NCBI GenBank assembly: GCA_963823335.1
Contig: CAWGLD010000001.1
Location: 1,280,001 to 1,344,000, forward strand
DNA: 64,000 nucleotides
Direction of reading: 5' to 3'
Origin: an uncultured delta proteobacterium
GTDB taxonomy: Bacteria > Desulfobacterota > Desulfobacteria > Desulfobacterales > B30-G6
Of this stretch, positions 2,867 to 64,000 are shown piece by piece. The number at the start of each line of letters is the position of its first letter. Position 1 is the first letter of the stretch. The notes under the pieces were generated by a model. The model made no database searches, was not told the DNA's origin, and saw only the letters and a program-made list of their open reading frames with translations. A program made the position numbers and the translations under genes.

Positions 2867-3358
2867 ATGACCACCCTTCTGTGCTACTCACGCAACCGAT
2901 CCACAAGTGTTGAGCAGATCGATGATGAAACTCTGGTTTCCACCTGTACCCTGCAAGACACTCTCACCGAAGCATTCGTGCGGATCCATATACGATTCCC
3001 CGATTTGAAGATTCTACATGCCGAGGGAGAATTCATCCGTTCAGGCCAGAACGACTGTATCCATGCCGCAGCGGCTTTTGAGAAAATCAAGGGTGTGCGT
3101 ATCGGGGCAGGTATGAAAAAAATTATCCGGGGTCTCACCGGCGAGGTCACCACATGTCAGGAGCTACCACTCCTGATTGAAGAGGCTTGTCATGGCGTCA
3201 TTCTGGCTTTTACGAAAGATACCCTGGCCAAGGCTCCCAGGGAAAAAGCGCTGTCGACCGAGTTTTTCCAAAAAATGGTAAAGGAAAATATTCGGCTGTA
3301 CGATCGCTGTGCGGCATTTGCGCCTCCGAGTCCCTTGGTGGAGGGTCTTGAAATCTGA
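2867..3358 (+). CDS. DUF2889-like protein
   Basis: R.R.T.V...D...L...L.D pattern, C..L..L..E.C motif and C-terminal C.AF, typical of this family. Confidence 0.65.
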   Translation: MTTLLCYSRNRSTSVEQIDDETLVSTCTLQDTLTEAFVRIHIRFPDLKILHAEGEFIRSGQNDCIHAAAAFEKIKGVRIGAGMKKIIRGLTGEVTTCQELPLLIEEACHGVILAFTKDTLAKAPREKALSTEFFQKMVKENIRLYDRCAAFAPPSPLVEGLEI

Positions 3359-44165: not shown

Positions 44166-45367
44166 TGCCAACGGAAAATCAGAATGACAACCTGTGCTGT
44201 GACCCCGCCAAAACGCCCCGTGTTAATGAAGGGCTAACAGAAATGCTACCCATTTACAGGGAAGGACCGCCAGATGAGGCTTGCTGCGGCCCACCACCAG
44301 GTCCTGCCAGCAGTCGATTTGAAAAACCGGGCTATCGTCTATGTGATTTCGTTGAAGGATTCATGGAGACCCCGACGGGGTCGGTGCCAAGAATAAAAAC
44401 GAGCCCTGAGAGATGGGATCTTCTCGGGAACATCATGGTTCGTCTGGGGATCAACAGAGGTCAGTATAAGGTGGCGCCCGGGCTTTACAGTATCGGTGAT
44501 GTCACGCCGCTGTCACCTGTTCTGGTAACGGCAAACTATAAGCTCACCTTCGATCTGCTGCGTCAGGACCTTCAGGGAGAATCTGCCTGGGTCCTGGTAT
44601 TGGATACCAGGGGCATCAATGTCTGGTGTGCGGCCGGTAAAAAAACATTTTCCACCGCTGAAGTGATTCACAGGGTCAAACAGACCCGTCTGCAGGAAGT
44701 CGTTAGCCACCGAAGACTGATTTTACCCCAATTATCGGCAACGGGTGTTTCAGGTAAACTGGTAACCAAAGGTTGCGGTTTCAGGGTGACCTGGGGACCG
44801 ATTCGGACAAAGGATATCAAGCCCTTTTTAAGGGCAGGTTTGAAGGCCGATAAAGCCATGCGGCGGGTGACATTTGGATTTGTGGAACGACTGATACTCG
44901 TGCCTGTCGAGCTGACCTTACTGCGCAAATATCTTTTGTGGATTTTTTTGGCGGGCTTTATCCTTTCAGGTGTTGGTCCTGGTCTTTTTTCCATCGGTCC
45001 GGCCTGGAGCCGCGGACTCGTCCTGATCGCAGCATGTGCTGTCGGGGTATTTTCGGGCGCCGTGGCGGTGCCGGTGCTGCTGCCCTGGGTACCTGGCAGG
45101 GCCTTTGCAGTCAAAGGTGTCATCATTGGGGTATTAACGGGTGCCGGTATGGTACTGGTGTTGGGAAAGTCGATCACCGTTGTGGAAGCAACGGCCATGA
45201 TTCTTTTGATCGGAGCTGTCAGTTCATATTTGGCCATGAATTTTACCGGGTCGACACCCTATACCTCCCCTTCGGGTGTAGAAAAGGAGATGCGGAAAGC
45301 CATGCCCTTTCAGGTCTTGGCGATAATTCTGTCCATTGCGGGCTGGGTTGGCTCGGTGTTTATTTAG
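44165..45367 (+). CDS. hgcA: Mercury methylation corrinoid protein HgcA
   Basis: Cap-helix GINVWCAAGK, VTANYKLTFD, LILPQL, C-terminal TM domain with MNFTGSTPYTSPSGVEKEM. Confidence 0.96.
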   Translation: MPTENQNDNLCCDPAKTPRVNEGLTEMLPIYREGPPDEACCGPPPGPASSRFEKPGYRLCDFVEGFMETPTGSVPRIKTSPERWDLLGNIMVRLGINRGQYKVAPGLYSIGDVTPLSPVLVTANYKLTFDLLRQDLQGESAWVLVLDTRGINVWCAAGKKTFSTAEVIHRVKQTRLQEVVSHRRLILPQLSATGVSGKLVTKGCGFRVTWGPIRTKDIKPFLRAGLKADKAMRRVTFGFVERLILVPVELTLLRKYLLWIFLAGFILSGVGPGLFSIGPAWSRGLVLIAACAVGVFSGAVAVPVLLPWVPGRAFAVKGVIIGVLTGAGMVLVLGKSITVVEATAMILLIGAVSSYLAMNFTGSTPYTSPSGVEKEMRKAMPFQVLAIILSIAGWVGSVFI

Positions 45368-53126: not shown

Positions 53127-53372
53127 ATGCCAATATACGAATTTAAATGCCTGAAGTGTGAAGCGTTCTTCGAAATTCTTGTCATGAATAAACGTGAGTC
53201 AGTTGAGATGGTCTGTCCGGAATGCAATGCTGAAGATGTCGAGCGGGTTATCAGCAGCACCCATCATACCATCAACGCGGCATCCGGAACCAAGCAGGGT
53301 GCCGCGAGCCAGACACGAAACTGTTCCAGCGGGTCATGTACGACCTACACGATTCCAGGTCCAAACGGCTGA
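53127..53372 (+). CDS. FmdB-family zinc-ribbon protein
   Basis: MPIYEFKCLKC...CPEC. Confidence 0.88.
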   Translation: MPIYEFKCLKCEAFFEILVMNKRESVEMVCPECNAEDVERVISSTHHTINAASGTKQGAASQTRNCSSGSCTTYTIPGPNG

Positions 53373-53407
53373 TACTTACACGCAAATTCCATCGTCAAGG
53401 TCATGTA

Positions 53408-54103
53408 ATGCATTCTATCCATCTTCAGGAAAAAGAACAGTTCAAGAAACTCTTTGAGCAGGAAGGTATCGACTACCTGGAAGACCGTATGAAGGTTCTG
53501 GAAGCTTTTTTTCAGACAGAACAGCACCTTTCAGAAGCTGAACTGTCCGAAATTATAAAAGATAAAAACCTGAGCCTGACACCTGCCTTTATTTCGGATA
53601 CCCTGGATCTCTTGTGCCGGTATGGATTTGCTCACCGGCACCGGTTTAATAACGGTGTCATTCAATATGAGCACCGGCATATCGGCCAGCATCATGACCA
53701 TATGATCTGCACCAAGTGTAACCAGATCATCGAGTTTAAAAATAATCAGCTTGAAGATCTTCAATTGCAGGTTGCGGCAACGCATGGGTTTCATATGCTG
53801 CAGCATAAAATGGAAATTTACGGCATCTGTACGCATTGTCTCAAGCGACGATTGTCTTTGATGCCGTTGATGGCGGCAAAACAGGGTGAGGTATTGATTG
53901 TCAGGCGTTTTAAAGGGGGCACCAGATCCCAGATGCGTCTGATGAGCATGGGCTTGCGGGTGGGGGACCGAATCGATGTGATTTCAAACCTGAACCAGGG
54001 GCAGCTAGTTATCGCTCTGGACTATAAACGGCTGGTTCTAGGACGCGGACTGGCGGAAAAAATAATGGTTCAGCCATTGGACCCGGAAGCGGGTGCGGCA
54101 TGA
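53408..54103 (+). CDS. Fur-family regulator fused to a FeoA domain
   Basis: HHDHMICTKC, YGICTHC; C-terminal RLMSMGLRVGD...LGRGLAEKIMV. Confidence 0.88.
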   Translation: MHSIHLQEKEQFKKLFEQEGIDYLEDRMKVLEAFFQTEQHLSEAELSEIIKDKNLSLTPAFISDTLDLLCRYGFAHRHRFNNGVIQYEHRHIGQHHDHMICTKCNQIIEFKNNQLEDLQLQVAATHGFHMLQHKMEIYGICTHCLKRRLSLMPLMAAKQGEVLIVRRFKGGTRSQMRLMSMGLRVGDRIDVISNLNQGQLVIALDYKRLVLGRGLAEKIMVQPLDPEAGAA

Positions 54104-54535: not shown

Positions 54536-55537
54536 ATGCCGGCACCTGTACGTTTAAATAAAGCAAGGGATGTCATTGTCGGTATCGGCAACGCCCTTGT
54601 GGATATCCTTTCCCATGCAGACGATGTCTTTGTCGAGAAGACAGGTTTCGGGAAAGGCGGGATGAACTATGTTGACACAGACTTTATCGACAAGATGATT
54701 GCCATGGTGCCGGGCACGCCCGTTGTCGTTCCAGGTGGTTCGGCGTGCAACACCATCATCGGTGTGGGAAAACTCGGCGGTAAAGCCCGCTTCATAGGAA
54801 AATGTGGTCAAGACACCCTGGGAGATCTATTTAGCAAAGAGCTTCAAAACAGTCATGTGGATCCTTTTCTGATGACGAGTGCATTGTCCACCGGGAGGGT
54901 TTTTTCGATTGTGACACCCGATGCACAGCGTTCCATGTTTACATATCTTGGCGCGGCGTCTGAGTTGAGACCGGGCGAAATCGCCGGGTGTAGTTTTCTG
55001 GATGCAGCAGTGGTTCATATTGAAGGATACCTTCTCTTCAACAATGACTTGATTATGAAGGCTTTGAGTCGGGCAAAAGAGGATGGCGCCCTGATTTCCC
55101 TGGACCTGGCTAGCTATACGGTTGTTGAATCGTCTAAGATGCTATTGGAAACAATTGTTACCGAGTATGTTGACATTCTCATCGCCAATGAAGATGAGGC
55201 TGCTGTTTTCACTGGGCATTTTGATGAACGAAAGGCGATTGAAGCTCTCTCTGAAAGAGCCAGGATAGCGGTGTTGAAAGTCGGAGAGCGTGGGAGCTAT
55301 GTCGCGCAGGATGGCGAAATCGTAAAAATAGATCCCTTGGGAAAAGGTCCTGTCATCGATACCACCGGCGCAGGTGATTTATGGGCGTCCGGGTTTTTAT
55401 TTGGACTCACCCGGGGTTATTCTGTCGAAACGTGTGGCAGAATTGCCTCCGCTTGTGGCAGCGAGGTGTGTCAGGTTGTCGGTGCGACCATTCCCGATGA
55501 GGGCTGGGCACGCATAAAAAGGATATGGGAGGATTAA
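54536..55537 (+). CDS. PfkB-family kinase (adenosine kinase-like)
   Basis: GNALVD, GGSACNT, ANEDEA, DTTGAGD. Confidence 0.9.
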   Translation: MPAPVRLNKARDVIVGIGNALVDILSHADDVFVEKTGFGKGGMNYVDTDFIDKMIAMVPGTPVVVPGGSACNTIIGVGKLGGKARFIGKCGQDTLGDLFSKELQNSHVDPFLMTSALSTGRVFSIVTPDAQRSMFTYLGAASELRPGEIAGCSFLDAAVVHIEGYLLFNNDLIMKALSRAKEDGALISLDLASYTVVESSKMLLETIVTEYVDILIANEDEAAVFTGHFDERKAIEALSERARIAVLKVGERGSYVAQDGEIVKIDPLGKGPVIDTTGAGDLWASGFLFGLTRGYSVETCGRIASACGSEVCQVVGATIPDEGWARIKRIWED

Positions 55538-56226
55538 TGGCAAAACAGAAACGGGTTACACGAAAACAGCTGCTCAAGGAGCCGGATGAATTTATCACCA
55601 CTACCGGCAGGGTAATTGGATGGGGGAGGAAATATACAAGGCAATTGGCATATGCCGCAGGCGCCTTTTTGCTCCTCTTGGTGATCATTGCCGGGTATCG
55701 GTTTTTTTCAAGCAGTGCTGAAAACAAGGCTTTTTTGTTGCTTGATCAGGCCGTAGGCAAATATGAAGCCCAAAAAACGGACATGGATGCCCTTGTCGCC
55801 TATGAAGGTGCCAGGGAAGATTTTGAATATATCATCAATAAATATGACAATACAGAAGCGGGGAAGCTGGCGACAGTGGTGTTCGCCGGGATGAGCTATG
55901 ATGTGGGTGAGGCAGAAAAGGCGATTCAACTATACCAAGCCGCGTTGCCTTATTTTAAAGGCGATACGACCTATCAAAATTTTTTATGGAGTGGTCTTGG
56001 GTATTGTTATGAAAAAAAGAAGGATGTCCGTATGGCGATATCCTGGTTTGAGAAAATTGCCGATGGACAAGATCCGGTTGCCAAGGACGTGGCGCTGTTC
56101 AATATGGGCCGGCTCTATCACGAACTGGGAGATACGGCTAAAAGCAAACAGGCCTATGAAAGACTGGTGGCAGAACACACGGATTCCATCTACTATCAGT
56201 TGGCCATGGAAAAGATCGCCGGATGA
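55537..56226 (+). CDS. YfgM-like membrane-anchored TPR protein
   Basis: RKQLLKEPDEF N-terminus, single TM, TPR helices. Confidence 0.8.
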   Translation: MAKQKRVTRKQLLKEPDEFITTTGRVIGWGRKYTRQLAYAAGAFLLLLVIIAGYRFFSSSAENKAFLLLDQAVGKYEAQKTDMDALVAYEGAREDFEYIINKYDNTEAGKLATVVFAGMSYDVGEAEKAIQLYQAALPYFKGDTTYQNFLWSGLGYCYEKKKDVRMAISWFEKIADGQDPVAKDVALFNMGRLYHELGDTAKSKQAYERLVAEHTDSIYYQLAMEKIAG

Positions 56227-56303
56227 AATAGAAATGGCTAATCCTTTTATTCGGATTAGCCATTAAGGAGGAGAATAGATGAAAAATTTATTGGCAAACT
56301 GCC
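56227..56303 (-). ncRNA. Predicted sigma54-dependent small RNA (~77 nt)
   Basis: -24/-12 promoter upstream; 5' GGCA/UGCC hairpin; single-stranded UUUUUCAUCUAUUCUCCUCCUU; 12-bp hairpin followed by UCUAUUU. Confidence 0.65.
56233..56264 (-). terminator. Intrinsic terminator hairpin (U-rich tail on the minus strand)
   Basis: aatggctaatcc-N8-ggattagccatt; the plus-strand tail is aaggagg, not T-rich. Confidence 0.7.
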
Positions 56304-56312
56304 AATTTGATA

Positions 56313-56330
56313 ATGCAATTTTGCTGCCAA
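56313..56330 (-). promoter_or_regulatory. Sigma54 -24/-12 promoter
   Basis: Minus strand TTGGCAGCAAAATTGCAT: GG-N10-GC with TTGCA. Confidence 0.8.
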
Positions 56331-56377
56331 GATGAAGTTTTTTTTCATAAAGGACGCAATTAATTATTTCTCTTAAT

Positions 56378-56390
56378 TTTCAATATATTA
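56378..56390 (+). promoter_or_regulatory. IHF-like binding site
   Basis: tttcaatatatta versus WATCAANNNNTTR (1 mismatch), with an AT tract upstream. Confidence 0.55.
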
Positions 56391-56443
56391 TCGAGCCAGT
56401 CTCCTCCATCATATATTGTCGTCTATCACCATAACCCCTGTCT

Positions 56444-56481
56444 ATTTCCAAATGGAAACTCGCTCGTTTCCATTTGGAAAC
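56444..56481. promoter_or_regulatory. Tandem palindromic enhancer-like sites
   Basis: TTTCCA-aa-TGGAAAC and GTTTCCA-tt-TGGAAAC, 22 bp apart; together they form a perfect 15-bp inverted repeat. Confidence 0.65.
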
Positions 56482-56494
56482 AATGCTGCTTCTA

Positions 56495-57868
56495 TTAATC
56501 ACTGACGATTCCATACTTCTTCAGTTTTTTGTTGAATCCGCTTCTCCCGATACCTAGCAGTTGAGCGGCTTCGGATTGGACATGGTTGCAGCTTGTCAAT
56601 GCCCGTAAAAGCATTTTCTTTTCAATATCTGCAAGTGTTTCGAACAATCTTGCATCCATGGGAATGTTCTCCAGCTGAAGCTCTCTTGTGAGGTCGCTTT
56701 TGAAATATCTGGGTAAGTCGGAAACCCGGATAATGTCATCCGGGCATAAAACCATGGCGCGCTCAATTGTATTTTCAAGTTCTCTGATGTTGCCGGGCCA
56801 GTCATGCCGATAGAAAATCTGTTCCACTTCCCTTTCGATACCCTTGACAGGAACACCCATTCTTCTTTCGGCCGCATACTTGTCGATGAAATGGTCCACC
56901 AGGAGTCTCAGGTCTTCCACGCGCTGGCGCAATGGGGGTAGATCGATGTATACAACATTCAATCGATAAAAGAGATCTTCTCTGAAGCGCCCTTTCTTAA
57001 CCTCTTCCCTCAAGCGCTTGTTTGTGGCCGTAATCAACCGGAAATTAACTGCAACTTGTCGCAGTCCCCCGACTCTTTCAAAGATTTTGTCCTGCAGAAC
57101 CCGCAGCAGTTTTACCTGAAGAGATGGCGACAATTCACCTATTTCGTCTAGGAAGAGCGTTCCGCCTTCGGCCAACTCGAAGCGCCCCTTTTTTGTTGCG
57201 ACAGCACCGGTGAAGGCACCTTTTTCATGCCCGAAAAGCTCACTTTCGAGAAGGCTCTCCGCAAGAGCCGAGCAGTTGACCGCTATAAAAGGATGATTGT
57301 GGCGGGGGCTGTTGTAGTGAATCGACTTGGCAACCAGGTCTTTTCCAGTGCCACTTTCCCCTTCGATCAGGATAGAAGCAGTGACCGGGGCAATTTTTTT
57401 GATGAGGTCAAAAATATTCTGCATTTTTGGGCTCTTACCGATAATATTCCCAAAGCTGTACTGGGATTCGACGGTTTCACGCAAACGGCGGTTTTCTTTA
57501 ATGACCCGATACATCTGAATGGCTTTGTTGACATATATGACCAGACGTTCGTTATCAAACGGTTTCAAAATATAATTGTAGGCACCTTTTTGCATCGCTT
57601 CTACAGCTTTTTCAACCGTTCCATGTGCTGTCATCATGATGACCGGGATACCCGGGTCTTTTTCCTTGATCCGTTCCAGGAGCTCGATACCATCCATGGA
57701 CGGCATTTTCATATCGGTTAGTACCAGGTCAACATCTGAATTTTTCAAGACAGATAACGCCTCTTCGCCGCTATAGGCCGTCAGCGTTTCAAACCCTTCC
57801 TCTTCAAGAACCGCACTGAGTATTGGCGGATAGTTTTTTTCATCATCAACGATGAGTATCGTTTCCAT
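56495..57868 (-). CDS. Sigma54-dependent response regulator (NtrC/AtoC/PilR family)
   Basis: Receiver [34 protein letters not shown], Fis-type HTH. Confidence 0.95.
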
Positions 57869-57908
57869 ATATTTATCCCCTAATTTGAAACGCTCAACTT
57901 AGGTATTC

Positions 57909-59318
57909 TTATCTTGCCGGCAGTTCCACTGTTACAGCGACACCCTTGTCGGAACGGTTTTCTATATGAACAACACCATTGTGGGCCTCAATGATATTCT
58001 TAACAATCCCCAGACCAAGACCGGTGCCTTTTTCCTTGGTGGTAAAAAACGGGTCCCATATTTTTGCGTTGATTTCTTCAGGGATGCCTCGCCCTTCATC
58101 AAGAAATTGAATTTTTACCAGGTCTGCCTCTGCAATGATGCTGATCTGGATGTTGCCTCCATCCGGCATTGCCTGCATGGCATTTATCAATATGTTCAAA
58201 AAAGCCTGGTAGAGCATATCTTTATCGGCCATGATCTCGGGAAGATCAGGCGCATACAGTGTATCGAATGTATATCCCTTATTTTTGGCTTCGGTTGCAA
58301 TAAATTTGAGGTTTTTTTCCAGAACCGCTTCTATCCGGCAGACGATGAAATCTGGTTGCCGGGGCCGGGCAAAATTCAGAAAGTCTGTTATGATATTGTT
58401 CAGGCGCCCACCTTCCTCGATAATGATATCGGGAATCGTGCTGGATGCATCGTATGATGCCATTTTCTTTTTCAGGAGTTCCGCCGAGCTTCTGATAATA
58501 CCCAGCGGGTTACGTATTTCATGTGAAACGCTCGCAACCATTTCGCCGATGGAGGACAAATGTTCGGCACGGTTGAGTTGCTCTTTGAGCCTGAGCTGCT
58601 CTTTTGCCCGCTGCTCGATGATGGATTCTCCTCTTTTTACAACAAAGAGGAGAATCAGAAAAAGCAGGATCATGACGGCCATGATGGTGATGACAACCAG
58701 AATCTGGAAATTGAAAATGGTCCGGTAACTATCGGTGATATCCTGTGTAATTTCAATTACACCAATGATCGGCCCGGTAATGGAGGCCAGGGATTTTTCC
58801 GCACGAAGGGGGGCAAATGTGGTCACCTTGATTGTTTTTGGGATTCCAAGCGTAATTTCCCAGAAGCCGCCGTTCTGTTCGATTTCCGATGTCGAAACAC
58901 CCATGAGAGCCGTCTGATAGGAATGACCGCCGATATCCTTGATCCCCATGAGTTCCTGGTCAAAACTATAGGCAATGATGTCGTTCAGGTCATACAGGTT
59001 GACCATTTCGATGCTATAGCCGTGAAGGGTTCCCCTTATGAGGGTGTCCATGCGTTCGTACTGGCTTTTATTCCTGAGTTGAATTTTACCGTATCGCAGG
59101 GACATGGGGATGATGAACTGCCTGAAAATCTGGTGATTCAGATTGGACACCAATAGTTGCGCGTACTCATCATTCTTTTTTAGCTGCAATTTACGTGCCC
59201 AATGGGTGTTCAGGTAGGAGAGCACGATGGCGCCGATAAATATGAAGATAAAACTGGTAATGGAAAAGTATTTGTAGAGTTTGAAGGATTTTGTTTTGTT
59301 TTGTGGTTTGGCTGTCAT
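57909..59318 (-). CDS. Sensor histidine kinase (2 TM), probable partner of the sigma54 regulator
   Basis: [33 protein letters not shown]. Confidence 0.93.
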
Positions 59319-59381: not shown

Positions 59382-60974
59382 TTACGGCAGGGGCACGCTG
59401 GAAAGTATCGTTTTGATATCATTATCCGAAAAATTCAGACCCGCACCGAAAAAGAACGATTCATTGTCGTCCTCGCTGATAAAATCGTCTAATCCTGCAG
59501 TAAGATAGAGGTGTGAGAAGGGGAAAAAGTCCACCCGTGTCTTCAGATGCGGATTATCTTCCAGGTCAAAATCAAACGATTCGAGGGATAAAACCACGCG
59601 GTCATCGAGCAGATAATAGTCCAGAGCGATACCGCCGGTCGATTCGAAAAGCCCACCCCTCAGTCCGATGTCATAATACCTTTTGGCAACCTGGGCTGAA
59701 AATTTCAATGAGTCATAATCCGTTTTTTCTTTATGCTTCTTGGTGGTTGTTCCATCAACGGTTTTCTTGGTTTCGGTGGTGGTCTTGGTTCCGGTTGGAT
59801 CGTCCACGATCTGAAACAGGTAATATTTATCTTCTTTGGGCTGGATTCGTAGGGACAAATAAGATTTCAGGGCTTCTTCCTTGGTCAGGTATTCGCCCCG
59901 GTAGTCCAGATACGCTTGAAAGGTTTCCTGCTTTTCCATGTACGTGTTCAGATGGGTCAATGTTTCATTAAGGGTCTCCACGGTTTCTTCGTCGCGGACA
60001 AGTCTTCCGATGGTACCTTCACCCCGATTGATGGTGGCTGTGATATCGCTGAGAGACGCCAGGGTTTTGTTGAGATTCTGAATTGAATCCTCTTTAGTGA
60101 TGAGCTGACCCAGGGTGCCTTCTCCGTTTTTAATCCGATCGGTAATTTCCTTGAGGGACGCCAGGGTCTGGTTCAGGCTCTCTACGGTCTCATCATTATT
60201 GATAAGTCTGCCGATACTCCCTTGACCTTGATTGATTTTATCTGTAATTTCAGTCAGGTTTGCCACCAGGGGTTTCATGGTTCCGATAACGCTCCTGGTG
60301 CTGCTGATGATGCTGCCGATATCCTCCTTATTACCTTCGCCAATCTCTTTTAATGTTCCGGTAAAGGTGATCAGGTTGTCAACGATGACATCAATATTCT
60401 CTCTGTTTTTCTGGACTGTCTGGTTCAATGCCGTCACCACTTCTTGGACATTGTTAATAATCGCGCGAAGCGTGGCTTCTCCGGAATCCGTGCCGAGGAC
60501 CCTCGAGAGCGAACGGGTGAGGTCGTTGATGTTTGTAGCGACCTCACCCAGGGTGTTCATGAGCACATCCATGTCGGTGATGGGAGCTGTGCGGGTAATG
60601 CGTCCGCCCGGCGAGATAGGCGGTGCCGTAACCGAACCAGGTATAAGCTCGACGTATTTATCCCCCAGGATTCCCCGGGTTCGAATGATCGCAGTGTCCT
60701 CTTTACGGATGATAAGGCCCGGGTTCATCCTAAGCACAACCAGAGCTTTCCCATTTTGCAGGGCAATGGTCTGGACCTGTCCGACTTCAACACCGGCTAT
60801 CTCGACACTGACGTCTTTGACCAGTCCGGTGGCGGAATCGAACAGCACTTCGATATCATACCCTTTTTTTGTGGAAAAGGTCAGGTTTCCCACCTTCATG
60901 GACATATAGCCGAAAATGATAAGCCCGATGATGACAAAAAGACCCACTTTTGCTTCAGCACTGAAATTCGACAT
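59382..60974 (-). CDS. mlaD: MlaD/MCE-family protein with long helical repeats
   Basis: EAKVGLFV, AGVEVGQV, GILGDKYVEL.PG, repeated I..G.G.IG.L units. Confidence 0.85.
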   Translation of the reverse strand: MSNFSAEAKVGLFVIIGLIIFGYMSMKVGNLTFSTKKGYDIEVLFDSATGLVKDVSVEIAGVEVGQVQTIALQNGKALVVLRMNPGLIIRKEDTAIIRTRGILGDKYVELIPGSVTAPPISPGGRITRTAPITDMDVLMNTLGEVATNINDLTRSLSRVLGTDSGEATLRAIINNVQEVVTALNQTVQKNRENIDVIVDNLITFTGTLKEIGEGNKEDIGSIISSTRSVIGTMKPLVANLTEITDKINQGQGSIGRLINNDETVESLNQTLASLKEITDRIKNGEGTLGQLITKEDSIQNLNKTLASLSDITATINRGEGTIGRLVRDEETVETLNETLTHLNTYMEKQETFQAYLDYRGEYLTKEEALKSYLSLRIQPKEDKYYLFQIVDDPTGTKTTTETKKTVDGTTTKKHKEKTDYDSLKFSAQVAKRYYDIGLRGGLFESTGGIALDYYLLDDRVVLSLESFDFDLEDNPHLKTRVDFFPFSHLYLTAGLDDFISEDDNESFFFGAGLNFSDNDIKTILSSVPLP

Positions 60975-60980
60975 GATTTC

Positions 60981-61724
60981 CTAACCCCTGTCAGGGATAA
61001 ATTTACATTCGACAAACTGTCTTAGTACCGGATTGCTCGAGGACCTTATATCTTCCGGAGATCCATAGGCAATGATCTTGCCATTATACAACATTGCGAC
61101 CCTGTGGGCAATTTTAAAGGTCGATTCGATGTCATGGCTGATAACCACACAGGTTGCGCCAGTATTTTGCTGGGTCTCGACGATGAGCTGATCGATGGCA
61201 TCACACATGATGGGGTCAAGACCGGTAGTGGGTTCGTCGAATAGGATAATTTTGGGGTCGAGAGCAAGGGCTCTGGCGAGTCCGACCCGCTTGCGCATTC
61301 CTCCGGACAATTCCGAAGGTAATTTTTCCGTTACACCTTTTAGCCCAACCTGCAGCAGTTTTTCCGTGACAAGCCGTTGTACTTCTTTTTTCGAAAGTCG
61401 CCGATGTTCATTGAGAGGGAAAGCCACGTTTTCGCCAACGGTCATGGAATCGAAGAGGGCCGCATCCTGAAAAAGCATACCGAAATTTTTACGCATTTCG
61501 TTCAACCCTGCCTCATTCAATCCGGAGATATCGATGTCGTCTACAAGGATTCGACCCGAATCCGGTTTGACGAGACCGATAATATGTTTCAAAAGGACAC
61601 TCTTGCCTCCTCCGCTCTGACCGATGATAACGGTAATTTTTTTTGATTCAATGGTCAGATCGAGTTCATCCAGAACCTGTTGTTTACCAAAGGATTTTGA
61701 AATATTTTCGAGTGTAATTTTCAA
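60981..61724 (-). CDS. mlaF: MlaF-like ABC ATPase
   Basis: GQSGGGKS, FQDAALFDS, LSGGMRKRVGLARA, DEPTTGLDP. Confidence 0.9.
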   Translation of the reverse strand: MKITLENISKSFGKQQVLDELDLTIESKKITVIIGQSGGGKSVLLKHIIGLVKPDSGRILVDDIDISGLNEAGLNEMRKNFGMLFQDAALFDSMTVGENVAFPLNEHRRLSKKEVQRLVTEKLLQVGLKGVTEKLPSELSGGMRKRVGLARALALDPKIILFDEPTTGLDPIMCDAIDQLIVETQQNTGATCVVISHDIESTFKIAHRVAMLYNGKIIAYGSPEDIRSSSNPVLRQFVECKFIPDRG

Positions 61725-62491
61725 AACATAACCGTGGTCAGAAAGTAATCGCTGATCAATATGGACACGGATGCGTAGACAACGGCCTGGGTGGTCGCTC
61801 TCCCCACGCCGGCAGCGCCGCCGGTGGTGTTAAAGCCCTTGTAACAGCCGATCAAGGTCAAGATCAAACCAAAAACAGCAGATTTTATCAACCCGTTGAA
61901 AATGTCATGGATAGTGACGAATTCGATGATTCTGGCAACAAAGATACCGGAGTTGATATTCAGCAGGTGAACACCCACAAAATAGCCACCCAGGATACCG
62001 ATGAAGTCCGAGGTGACCGTCAATATGGGCAGCATGACGATTCCGGCCAAGATACGGGGCATGATGAGATATTGAACCGGATTTACAGACATGGTGTAGA
62101 GTGCGTCGATCTGTTCTGTAACACGCATGGTTCCGATTTCGGCGGCCATGGAAGAACCCGTCCGTCCGGTAACCATCAAGGCGGTGATTGCGGGGCCCAA
62201 TTCTCTGGTCATAGACAACGCCACGGTTGCGCCCACAAGACTTTCCCCCCCAAACATTCTAAAGCCATAGTAAGTCTGTATGGCGAGAACCATTCCGGTG
62301 AAAGCGCCGGTTATCAGAACCACGGGCAAGGAACCGACCCCTACAAATGCCATTTGTTTGAAGATAACGTGAAATCGGAAAGGTGGCCGGAAGAGCCACG
62401 AAACCGTTGATAGAAACAGGAGTAAAACTTTGCCGAATTCTTCTGTTAAAAGAATGAAGGGTCTACCGCTGAGCTCGAGAATTTTTATCAT
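61721..62491 (-). CDS. mlaE: MlaE-like permease
   Basis: RELGPAITAL..GR.GS..AAEIGTMRVTEQIDAL, GVGRATT. Confidence 0.92.
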   Translation of the reverse strand: MIKILELSGRPFILLTEEFGKVLLLFLSTVSWLFRPPFRFHVIFKQMAFVGVGSLPVVLITGAFTGMVLAIQTYYGFRMFGGESLVGATVALSMTRELGPAITALMVTGRTGSSMAAEIGTMRVTEQIDALYTMSVNPVQYLIMPRILAGIVMLPILTVTSDFIGILGGYFVGVHLLNINSGIFVARIIEFVTIHDIFNGLIKSAVFGLILTLIGCYKGFNTTGGAAGVGRATTQAVVYASVSILISDYFLTTVMF

Positions 62492-62865
62492 AAAGACCTG
62501 TTGTGAACATTCTAACCCGTCCGATAAAATGTGTCGATCACATGGCCGATGGTTCAATATCAGAACATATAGGGAAGGAAGCGAATAAAGTCAAGAGCAT
62601 GCGGCGTCTAAAGAAGTTTCCCGCCATATTTGTACGCAACGGGATAAAATTGTCGCTTTGAAGCAACACCATATATAGTAATTTTGTCTAACAAGATACA
62701 ATATATGGCAATTGAGTAACAATTATATATAATTTATATATAATTTTACTTGACATTGTTCAATTTCTAAGCAATTATAGAGACCAAATTCAATACATAG
62801 ACAGGTTTTTGTTCTTGAAGGGGTGACATTCATATCAAAACTTAGCAAACCAATGCATACTAGTT

Positions 62866-63063
62866 ATGACAAAAAACTCATTGAAAAAAATCCGAGAATC
62901 GCTTTTAATGAGCAAATCTGAGCTTGCTCGTGAGGCTAATGTTTCCCCGATTACGATTACGCGTATCGAGCAAGGCATGCCGTGCCGGATGGAAACCAAG
63001 CGAAAGATACTGCTGGCGCTTGGCTTTAAGCTTTCTGACAAAAATAAAATATTCGGTGATTAA
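62866..63063 (+). CDS. XRE-family HTH protein upstream of pilM
   Basis: MSKSELAREANVSPITITRIEQG. Confidence 0.85.
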   Translation: MTKNSLKKIRESLLMSKSELAREANVSPITITRIEQGMPCRMETKRKILLALGFKLSDKNKIFGD

Positions 63064-63072
63064 GAGCTTATT

Positions 63073-64000
63073 ATGGTTTTCAGAAGAAAAGACCATCTCG
63101 TTGGTTTGGATATTGGATCTAGAACCATCAAAGCATGCGAGATAATCGAAACAAAAAAGGGCCGGACCCTCGAAAAGTTCGGAATGATCGACATCGAATC
63201 GGGTCTCATTGAAGACGGTTCCATAAAGAATCCCGATGTCGTTGCAGGCGCCATTCGGCAGCTCTTCCAGACCCATCACATCCGGGAGCACAATGTTGCC
63301 ATATCCATTGGCGGCTATTCCGTCATTGTGAAGAAGATCAATGTCCAGACGATGTCTGAAGACCAGCTGCAGGAAAGTATTCAATTCGAGGCAGAGCAGT
63401 ATATTCCTTTCGATATCAACGATGTGAATCTTGATTTTCAGATGCTGGGTGAAAATGAGCAAAATCCCAATCAGATGAGCGTGTTGTTGGTTGCAGCCAA
63501 GAAAGACATGGTAAGCGATTATGTAAACCTCGCCCAGATGGCCGGTTTGAATCCCTGCATTATCGACATCGATGCCTTTGCTCTTCAAAATATATTTGAG
63601 GTCAGCTACGATTCAAAAGATGAAAACATCGCTTTGATCGATATCGGCGCCAGCAAGACATCTTTGAACATTCTTAAAGACGACGCCTCCGTATTCATGC
63701 GGGATGTTTCTCTTGGGTGCGGACAGATCAATCAGAGAATTGCCTCTATCACCGATTCGACCATGGAGGAGGCAGAAAAACTCAAATTTGGTGATCAGAG
63801 CGACAAGCTTTCCAATGAAGACCTGGCCGATATCGTATCTGCCGTCGTAACGGACTGGTGTACAGAAATTCGCCGTGCTCTCGATTTTTTCTATTCAACC
63901 TATCCGGACGAACAGATCAAGAAGATCGTACTAAGCGGTGGCGGTGGCGGTATCAAGGAATTCCGGCAGTTGTTGGCAGTGGAAACATCAGCAGAAGTTC
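63073..64000 (+). CDS. pilM: Type IV pilus assembly protein PilM (partial, runs off the window end; absent from the ORF track)
   Basis: VGLDIGSRTIK, EAEQYIPFDINDVNLDFQ, VAAKK, IDIGASKT, LSGGG. Confidence 0.95.
   Translation, partial: MVFRRKDHLVGLDIGSRTIKACEIIETKKGRTLEKFGMIDIESGLIEDGSIKNPDVVAGAIRQLFQTHHIREHNVAISIGGYSVIVKKINVQTMSEDQLQESIQFEAEQYIPFDINDVNLDFQMLGENEQNPNQMSVLLVAAKKDMVSDYVNLAQMAGLNPCIIDIDAFALQNIFEVSYDSKDENIALIDIGASKTSLNILKDDASVFMRDVSLGCGQINQRIASITDSTMEEAEKLKFGDQSDKLSNEDLADIVSAVVTDWCTEIRRALDFFYSTYPDEQIKKIVLSGGGGGIKEFRQLLAVETSAEV

Follow-up and report, generated by a model that had tools for sequence, protein, structure and literature searches.

In Desulfovibrio vulgaris Hildenborough, the sigma-54-dependent regulator DVU0679 targets Dv_sRNA2, a small RNA (sRNA) of unknown function encoded just downstream of the regulator's own gene (PMC3333781), and four sigma-54-dependent non-coding RNAs, two of which lie downstream of DVU0653 and DVU0679, have been reported in this species (PMC4641369). 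Binding of regulator to sRNA gene was shown by DAP-chip (DNA affinity purification on a chip; PMC3333781, PMC4641369), and two RpoN-dependent sRNAs are described in D. alaskensis G20 (PMC4045070). The present analysis concerns the window, i.e. the whole 64,000-nt stretch of DNA that was analysed (positions 1,280,001–1,344,000 of contig CAWGLD010000001.1, from an uncultured delta proteobacterium of the order Desulfobacterales), in which a 268-bp gap downstream of the gene for an NtrC-family response regulator very probably contains a real sigma-54- and activator-dependent sRNA gene. Like DVU0679 and DVU0653, the regulator is a two-component sigma-54 activator of a sulfate reducer with a mapped or predicted sRNA target gene immediately downstream. 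The Desulfovibrio sRNAs, however, belong to a different order and are compared here by description; DVU0679 is described as carrying GAYTGS, whereas the regulator in the window carries GAFTGA. The sRNA family reported here is undescribed and absent from Rfam; its architecture, a regulator-adjacent sigma-54 sRNA, is already known from Desulfovibrio.

Related arrangements exist in other bacteria. In Vibrio, the NtrC-type regulator LuxO and sigma-54 drive short sRNAs (Qrr) that are encoded beside the regulator and occur in several copies in some species, as does the RNA described here (2–4 copies in some genomes). The Qrr sRNAs are Hfq-dependent, contain four stem-loops, and target quorum-sensing regulators, whereas the RNA in the window matches no Rfam family and its genome yielded no Hfq; the LuxO NCBIfam model scored 374 bits on the regulator, against a cut-off of 800. 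GlmY and GlmZ, together with GlrK–GlrR, share with the present RNA a sigma-54 promoter, a neighbouring two-component system, and an output connected with the envelope, GlmY acting as a protein decoy and GlmZ activating glmS; unlike the RNA described here, they have no anti-Shine-Dalgarno (anti-SD) seed, and the GlrR model scored 367 bits on the regulator (cut-off 763). Pxr of Myxococcus resembles our RNA in being a sigma-54-type sRNA of a (former) deltaproteobacterium; it has three stem-loops and controls development, and its Rfam family does not match the RNA here. MicF, MicC, MicA, RybB, and OmrA/B are envelope-signal-controlled sRNAs that pair with the start regions of outer-membrane protein mRNAs, OmrA/B being the output of the EnvZ–OmpR two-component system. 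These enterobacterial sRNAs use sigma-70 or sigma-E promoters and Hfq and have no sequence or Rfam relation to the present RNA, for which the predicted pairing is long (19–26 nt) and the regulator appears to be dedicated, unlike in the enterobacterial cases. The pairing of sRNAs at the translation starts of outer-membrane proteins has been restated as a general principle (PMC10117139). NcS25 of Burkholderia was considered as a precedent for a sigma-54-dependent porin sRNA and was rejected, since it is reported to have no sigma-54 motif upstream.

Organization of the intergenic gap

The gap is bounded by the stop codon of the regulator gene (56495) and that of a convergent gene for a TPR protein (56226). 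All coordinates of elements within it are given as read on the minus strand. The gap and the genes that border it contain the following features:

56445–56458 and 56467–56480, no strand assigned: enhancer (upstream activating sequence) of two perfect TTTCCANNTGGAAA palindromes, 22 bp apart centre to centre
56378–56390, minus strand: IHF-like site TAATATATTGAAA, lying between enhancer and promoter
56314–56329, minus strand: sigma-54 −24/−12 promoter TGGCAGCAAAATTGCA, of the form TGGCAG-N5-TTGCA
56226–56303, minus strand: predicted sRNA of ~75–78 nt, a single-stranded 5' arm followed by an intrinsic terminator, both ends being predicted
56266–56286, minus strand: seed, consisting of UUUUUCAUCU (56286–56277) and UCUCCUCCU (56274–56266) with AU between them
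56233–56264, minus strand: terminator hairpin with a 12-bp stem, an 8-nt loop, and the tail TCTATTTCAT, ~40 nt past the predicted start
56279–56335, plus strand: 18-codon open reading frame (ORF) MKNLLANCQFDNAILLPR, opposite the sRNA and judged not to be a gene
56495–57868, minus strand: NtrC-family response regulator with receiver, sigma-54 AAA+, and HTH_8 domains, GAFTGA at residues 217–222
57909–59318, minus strand: sensor histidine kinase with HisKA and HATPase domains
55525–56226, plus strand: convergent gene for a TPR protein, its stop codon immediately adjoining the sRNA terminator

The best explanation of the whole, which we regard as probable, is that the gap encodes a trans-acting sRNA of ~75 nt on the minus strand, running from ~56303 to ~56226. 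An earlier note, made from the sequence alone, had placed two palindromes, an IHF-like site, a −24/−12 promoter, and a hairpin in the gap, and all of them are present where it located them. The TTTCCANNTGGAAA palindromes, of which 0.35 would be expected from shuffles of the window, lie at about −142 to −177 relative to the predicted start, and the tandem pair occurs once in the 4.37-Mb genome, which fits the RNA being the main direct output of the two-component system. The same uniqueness, together with the comparative tests described below, supports the earlier note's view of the sRNA as the output of this system. The two palindromes (56444–56481) are also mutually complementary and, as part of the regulator mRNA, could form a 15-bp hairpin 14 nt past the stop codon; judged from the sequence, they may double as RNA structure.

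The TGGCAG-N5-TTGCA-type promoter, with GG and GC 10 nt apart at a fixed distance from the transcript, has two matches in the window, against 0.28 expected; the second, at 45094, lies inside an apparent membrane-protein coding region and was set aside as probably due to chance. The designation of TAATATATTGAAA as IHF-like follows what we take to be the IHF consensus. Among promoters of the family, the word YAANNNNTTGAWW was found 53–65 nt upstream of the −24 TGG in 16 of 45 (shuffles: mean 0.93, maximum 5), a scan in which 4 of the 45 promoter sites were mis-picked. Upstream sites, an AAA+ activator with GAFTGA, and rpoN (207 bits) are all present in the window's genome; binding of the regulator is predicted from sequence, and the regulator just upstream of the RNA is most likely its activator.

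The predicted start is a G at 56303, located 12 nt past the C of the −12 GC, and the interval of ~40 nt from there to the 12-bp hairpin is as the earlier note described it, the start itself being predicted. A minimum free energy fold was computed for the predicted sRNA. Its unpaired middle contains UUUUUCAUCU, which is complementary to AUG plus Lys codons, and UCUCCUCCU, which is anti-SD, in agreement with the earlier reading of this part of the RNA. The hairpin has the GC-containing stem and the U-run on the transcribed strand that characterize an intrinsic terminator, and no minus-strand ORF follows it, as had also been claimed; the TPR gene ends at 56226. A minor hairpin, ATTGGCAGTTTGCCAAT (56290–56306, minus strand), overlaps the predicted start and is not kept in relatives.

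Conservation of the cassette in Desulfobacterales

The window's genome (G000) was compared with sets of relatives comprising 41 genomes, its own included. Orthologues of the regulator (57–94% identity, with paralogues at 49% or less) were identified in the 40 other genomes as 36 full-length proteins and one partial protein, and the kinase gene adjoins that of the regulator in all eight other genomes examined. The whole cassette lies directly downstream of the regulator orthologue in 21 of the 30 fetched loci, so that promoter, seed, and hairpin are retained in the position for which the earlier note had proposed to look; the elements follow in the order of paired palindromes, TGGCA-N6-TTGC, a short variable stretch, the UUUUUCAUCUnUUCUCCUCC block, which is nearly invariant across the 21 loci, and a hairpin of differing sequence. 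Among the nine genomes without a linked cassette, the RNA was found elsewhere in the genome in six.

In an alignment of 21 copies (A1), the seed columns are nearly invariant, this 30-nt segment being the best conserved part of the RNA, and the hairpin has a 12-pair consensus stem with compensatory changes in 11 of the 12 pairs, i.e. the covariation that the earlier note had suggested examining. The stem cells of the alignment contain 15 G-U against 3 A-C combinations, and a T-run (at least 6 T in the 9 nt past the stem) was found in 27 of 44 loci on the regulator strand, versus 0 of 44 on the opposite strand. The T-runs and G-U pairs indicate that the polarity of the terminator is that of the regulator strand. 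No Rfam family was detected at the locus, Qrr and Pxr having been considered (best score 21.7 bits against a gathering threshold of 211, all E-values at least 0.27), nor at the loci of six relatives (0 matches), which upholds the earlier description of the RNA as unannotated.

A covariance model (R1) was built from the RNA only, with the promoter excluded, and matches the window at 56214–56302 (87.8 bits). R1 matches were obtained in 102 of 151 sampled Desulfobacterales genomes, corresponding to 76 of 113 high-quality genomes and 74 of 110 genera, and, outside the order, in 6 of 146 genomes of the phylum, belonging to two families. All 30 fetched loci have GG-N10-GC promoter elements 23–29 nt upstream of the R1 match, 29 of the form TGG[CT]A-N6-[TAC]TGC and one with TGGCCC, and the matches outside the order also have sigma-54 promoters. 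In 16 of 37 R1 loci, the regulator gene precedes the RNA on the same strand at a distance of at most 1.5 kb, and the unlinked copies retain the same palindromes. Conservation of this kind across the order places the arrangement far beyond chance. The exact 30-nt degenerate seed pattern matched 79 public contigs, with titles naming Desulfobacterales, Desulfosarcina, Desulfococcus, Desulfatibacillum, and an Olavius symbiont.

Two types of palindrome were distinguished among the relatives, GTTTCCA-N2-TGGAAAC and GGTTCAAAAnTTTGAACC, and one or the other is located upstream of both linked and unlinked RNA copies. The helix-turn-helix segment of the regulator reads [N/S]KK in all 15 loci with TTTCCA-type palindromes and N[W/Q]K in all six loci with GGTTCA-type palindromes, an association that kinship among the loci may inflate.

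Some genomes (G062, G112, G158, G088, and G103) have 2–4 copies of the sRNA; in G062 (L047, C1:4038524-4039111), two copies ~500 nt apart each have their own −24/−12 promoter and share an identical seed. Weaker R1 matches outside the order (L097–L100, family f120) have sigma-54 promoters of their own, a CU-rich arm that differs, UCUCUUUAUCUCCUUUCCUU, and UAU replacing CAU, and on their sequence these RNAs may represent a sister family. One exact match to the seed pattern (L179) lies on a contig labelled as a Hyphomicrobiales metagenome-assembled genome and probably reflects wrong binning, not a genuine presence beyond the phylum.

Porin-like genes as candidate targets

Porin-like outer-membrane proteins, which were not part of the earlier proposal, emerged from sequence complementarity as the probable target class. 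When 151 genomes were searched with a degenerate SD-AUG-codon pattern, most matches were the sRNA genes themselves, and a recurrent gene was found in several families. Its product consists of 330–400 amino acids (MKKLFV...ADWNFYGSAR...GAKWQINF). This family (A2) has no Pfam match above threshold, and its structure model comprises a signal helix and a 16-strand barrel (predicted local distance difference test, pLDDT, 65; predicted template modelling score, pTM, 0.66), with DcaP, OmpT, OmpF, and PorB as the top structural matches. Fourteen of the 41 genomes compared have a gene of the 16-strand family. The other MKKLL-type matches that were fetched encode unrelated proteins, except for two further porins in G073; there, L195 (G073:C116:6750-8600) is a tandem pair of porin genes of the 16-strand family, and both start regions are complementary to the seed.

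Wherever a genome has both, the start region of its porin gene matches the reverse complement of the sRNA arm over two blocks, UUAAGGAGGA and AGAUGAARAAAUUAUU, with a loop of 2–6 nt between them. Lineage-specific changes occur on both sides: in G029, GAAGAA replaces GGAGGA in both the sRNA mirror and the porin gene (25/26 identical), and in G024 and G025, where porin codon 2 is AAG rather than AAA, the sRNA has C in place of U, a correspondence that G032 does not show. In addition, a word able to pair with the 5' end of the sRNA stands one to three times further upstream in the porin leaders and follows the sRNA variant of the genome, e.g. UUAGGCU (twice) against sRNA AGCCUAA in G015, UUAUCAGGUUA against AACCUGAUAA in G025, AAGAAAUUGUUU against CAAACAAUUUCUU in G032, and UUAUUAAGU against AACUUAAUAA in G012 and G013. 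The longest leader match with the genome's own sRNA, compared with those of other genomes, is 11 versus at most 6 nt in G025, 12 versus at most 8 nt in G032, and 11 versus at most 7 nt in G008. Exact complementary stretches of at least 9 nt were found in 8 of 18 matched pairs, as against 10.8% of 360 mismatched pairs, many of which are kin sharing the consensus arm. Full-length duplex energies, computed for every sRNA with every porin leader, failed to distinguish matched pairs from mismatched ones, and this measure was dropped. A conserved unpaired seed, complementarity to SD and AUG, and co-variation of seed and target were thus all found, and it is quite likely, on the pattern of complementarity, that the sRNA acts by occluding translation start sites.

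The situation differs within the genus of the window. The 16-strand family was not detected in the window's genome by tblastn or hidden Markov model searches, none of the genus's 10 genomes yielded it, and the 5' arm of the sRNA departs there from the consensus of the order. An ungapped search of the whole genome for a near-perfect trans complement of the 31-nt arm returned only the locus itself, the next best site scoring 22.5/31. GGAGGAG-N2-10-GATGAAAA occurs at three places in this genome, namely the antisense of the locus, a site that is not a start, and the start region of the following gene, which lies outside the window:

G000:C1:753165-754436: candidate target, a secreted protein of 424 amino acids, predicted to form an 18-strand barrel and ending in IDF

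The model of this protein contains a signal helix and 18 strands (pLDDT 70, pTM 0.70), and AlgE, Campylobacter MOMP, and LamB were the top Foldseek matches, with E-values of 1e-11 to AlgE and MOMP. It has no Pfam match above threshold; the signal peptide, all-beta barrel, and C-terminal aromatic residue of an outer-membrane beta-barrel porin are all present. The protein is confined to the window's genus (7 of 10 genomes). Predicted pairing joins sRNA positions 56286–56277 to AGAUGAAAAA and 56274–56266 to AGGAGGAGA (10 + 9 bp, −25.3 kcal/mol). Five genomes of the genus have exactly the same start region, and in G001 a change beside the SD block of the target is matched in its own sRNA; the support for this target in the window's genome consists of the complementarity plus this single co-change. 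In G008, the target leader contains two GUUCGGCAAAC words facing GUUUGCCAAC in the sRNA. On balance, these sequence matches moderately favour the porin-like protein as the main target of the sRNA in the window's genome.

The leader of the own-genus barrel gene (L087–L094) is highly conserved and contains a second SD-ATG ~100 nt upstream of the ATG, opening an ORF of ~10 codons (MKGNRKCSMK in G000) with partial complementarity to the seed as well.

Alternative explanations and genomic context

Several observations weigh against a discrete sRNA of this kind or against its proposed targets. The T-run of the window's own copy, TCTATTTCA, is weak (5 T in 9, below most relatives), and in the closest relative (G005; L002, upstream of 3068-3155) the promoter reads TGGCAG-N6-TTGCA, with one extra spacer base, which from the sequence would be either an assembly slip or a weakened promoter. 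Hfq was not found with its Pfam model in G000, a 93.9% complete genome in which controls scored as expected. Seven metatranscriptome runs contain parts of the region, and RNA contigs from four of them were aligned to it (among them 56188–56568, 56272–56542, and one extending from the TPR gene and ending at 56285); these are unstranded, carry no end information, and derive from a related strain, with DNA carry-over possible. The first of them spans the predicted start and thus shows no discrete 5' end. It has 19 differences, at most three of them unlisted, and all 16 listed ones are at or upstream of 56302, a pattern that gives at most a hint of conservation. With respect to targets, the porin-like start ranks 8th in duplex energy among the 7,636 SD-bearing starts of this genome, that of DnaK being among the higher ones, and an anti-SD seed fits many strong ribosome sites, making a broader or different regulon possible. 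In six close genomes, the leader of the own-genus barrel gene has no upstream site (longest match 4–7 nt), and no convincing leader site able to pair with the 5' arm specific to the genus was found in a search of the window's genome. The likeness between sRNA and porin starts could, as far as sequences go, partly reflect common descent rather than selection for pairing. Two of the 14 genomes with the 16-strand family (G016 and G038) show no RNA, and 11 of the 17 genomes among the 41 that have neither porin family still have it, which means that other targets must exist.

The retention of the RNA in these 11 genomes, and the many strong-SD starts that score equal to or above the porin-like start, also favour an RNA that is real and acts mainly as a general anti-SD damper of many ribosome sites. 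The same alternative includes action in cis on TPR mRNA extended by read-through, whose 3' end would be complementary to the sRNA throughout; read-through is plausible because the hairpin has no T-run on the TPR strand, and the unstranded contig running from the TPR gene to 56285 agrees with it. Both modes are unlikely, given that porin leaders and start regions co-vary with the sRNA by lineage, which points to specific partners, and that about half of the copies are not beside a regulator–TPR pair (16 of 37 are linked), yet retain the seed. Even less can be said for a sigma-54 promoter from which a long antisense RNA would extend into the TPR gene, or for a hairpin that is merely a shared convergent terminator, with no discrete sRNA: the window's own T-run is interrupted and the RNA-library contigs cover the gap without visible ends, but T-runs are strong in relatives (27 of 44 loci with at least 6 T in 9), the promoter–seed–terminator unit persists in unlinked and tandem copies that have no TPR gene, and the best conserved segment is the 30-nt seed, which a mere leader would not need. 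We consider this very unlikely. Lastly, the real feature might be the small plus-strand ORF, with the minus-strand signals incidental, a rival that the earlier note had itself named. This ORF has a textbook SD and spacing (a perfect AAGGAGG-N6-ATG), and MKK(L/N)L(G/A) recurs at its start in most loci. Across the 44 loci, however, it is not conserved: it measures 1–43 codons in 42 and lacks its ATG in two, and only the first five or six codons are common, with nothing conserved past codon 6. It extends into the conserved sigma-54 promoter, the T-runs and G-U pairs agree with the opposite strand, no plus-strand promoter-like site was found in the gap, and the conserved stretch is accounted for as the mirror image of a signal-peptide start. 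A coding explanation is therefore extremely improbable.

The trans-acting sRNA remains the preferred reading, and the genes around it are relevant to its possible role. The kinase has a ~165-amino-acid periplasmic part between two membrane-spanning segments, followed by the HisKA and HATPase domains; PAS and HAMP domains were looked for in it and none was found. Upstream of it, on the same strand, are three mla genes:

61721–62557, minus strand: MlaE
60981–61724, minus strand: MlaF
59382–60974, minus strand: MlaD/MCE protein of 530 amino acids, directly upstream of the kinase gene

This trio lies upstream of the kinase gene in three of seven other genomes with enough flanking sequence. In Escherichia coli, Mla components work together with porins, and one of the fold matches, 5nup, is an entry for a complex of this kind. 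A 227-amino-acid protein without a Pfam match is encoded upstream of the mla genes (62905–63588, minus strand), and its orthologue is found upstream of the kinase region in five of the seven other genomes, i.e. more commonly than the mla genes. On the other side of the gap, the convergent TPR protein shows sub-threshold likeness to the BamD and YbgF models, and a 255-amino-acid protein encoded at 53336–54103 (plus strand) has a FUR domain and a C-terminal FeoA domain.

If the gap encodes a trans-acting sRNA, the membrane kinase (57909–59318) would sense a periplasmic or envelope cue and phosphorylate the NtrC-type regulator (56495–57868). As the conserved anatomy suggests, the latter would bind both palindromes and, helped by an IHF-type bend, activate sigma-54 polymerase at the −24/−12 promoter, and transcription would end at the hairpin, in line with its sequence and polarity. 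From complementarity and co-variation, the unpaired 5' arm would then pair with the SD, the AUG, and the first Lys codons of porin-like mRNAs, and such pairing would block ribosome entry. More speculatively, and in our view rather doubtfully, kinase and regulator might form a single-output device with the RNA as its sole direct target, the RNA mirroring and co-evolving with a fast-changing porin start. In the window's genus, where the 16-strand porin of the order would have given way to an unrelated 18-strand barrel, the anti-SD/anti-AUG core of the RNA would have been kept and its 5' arm rewritten; in other genera, porin leaders offer that arm two or three repeated landing sites. The whole would be an Hfq-free envelope-permeability switch tied to Mla lipid transport among the principal sulfate reducers of the sea.

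A good deal of marine sulfate reduction is due to Desulfobacterales, and no sRNA regulation in this order is described in the full-text literature that was searched. The locus provides an order-wide, easily recognized sRNA family with a dedicated sensor system, two enhancer specificity classes, and a specific target prediction; because the family is absent from Rfam, the R1 model could serve to annotate hundreds of genomes. It may also offer a natural case of an sRNA seed evolving jointly with fast-changing porin genes, apparently in the absence of Hfq. If the proposed mechanism is true, an envelope signal would be linked to the supply of porins in these bacteria.

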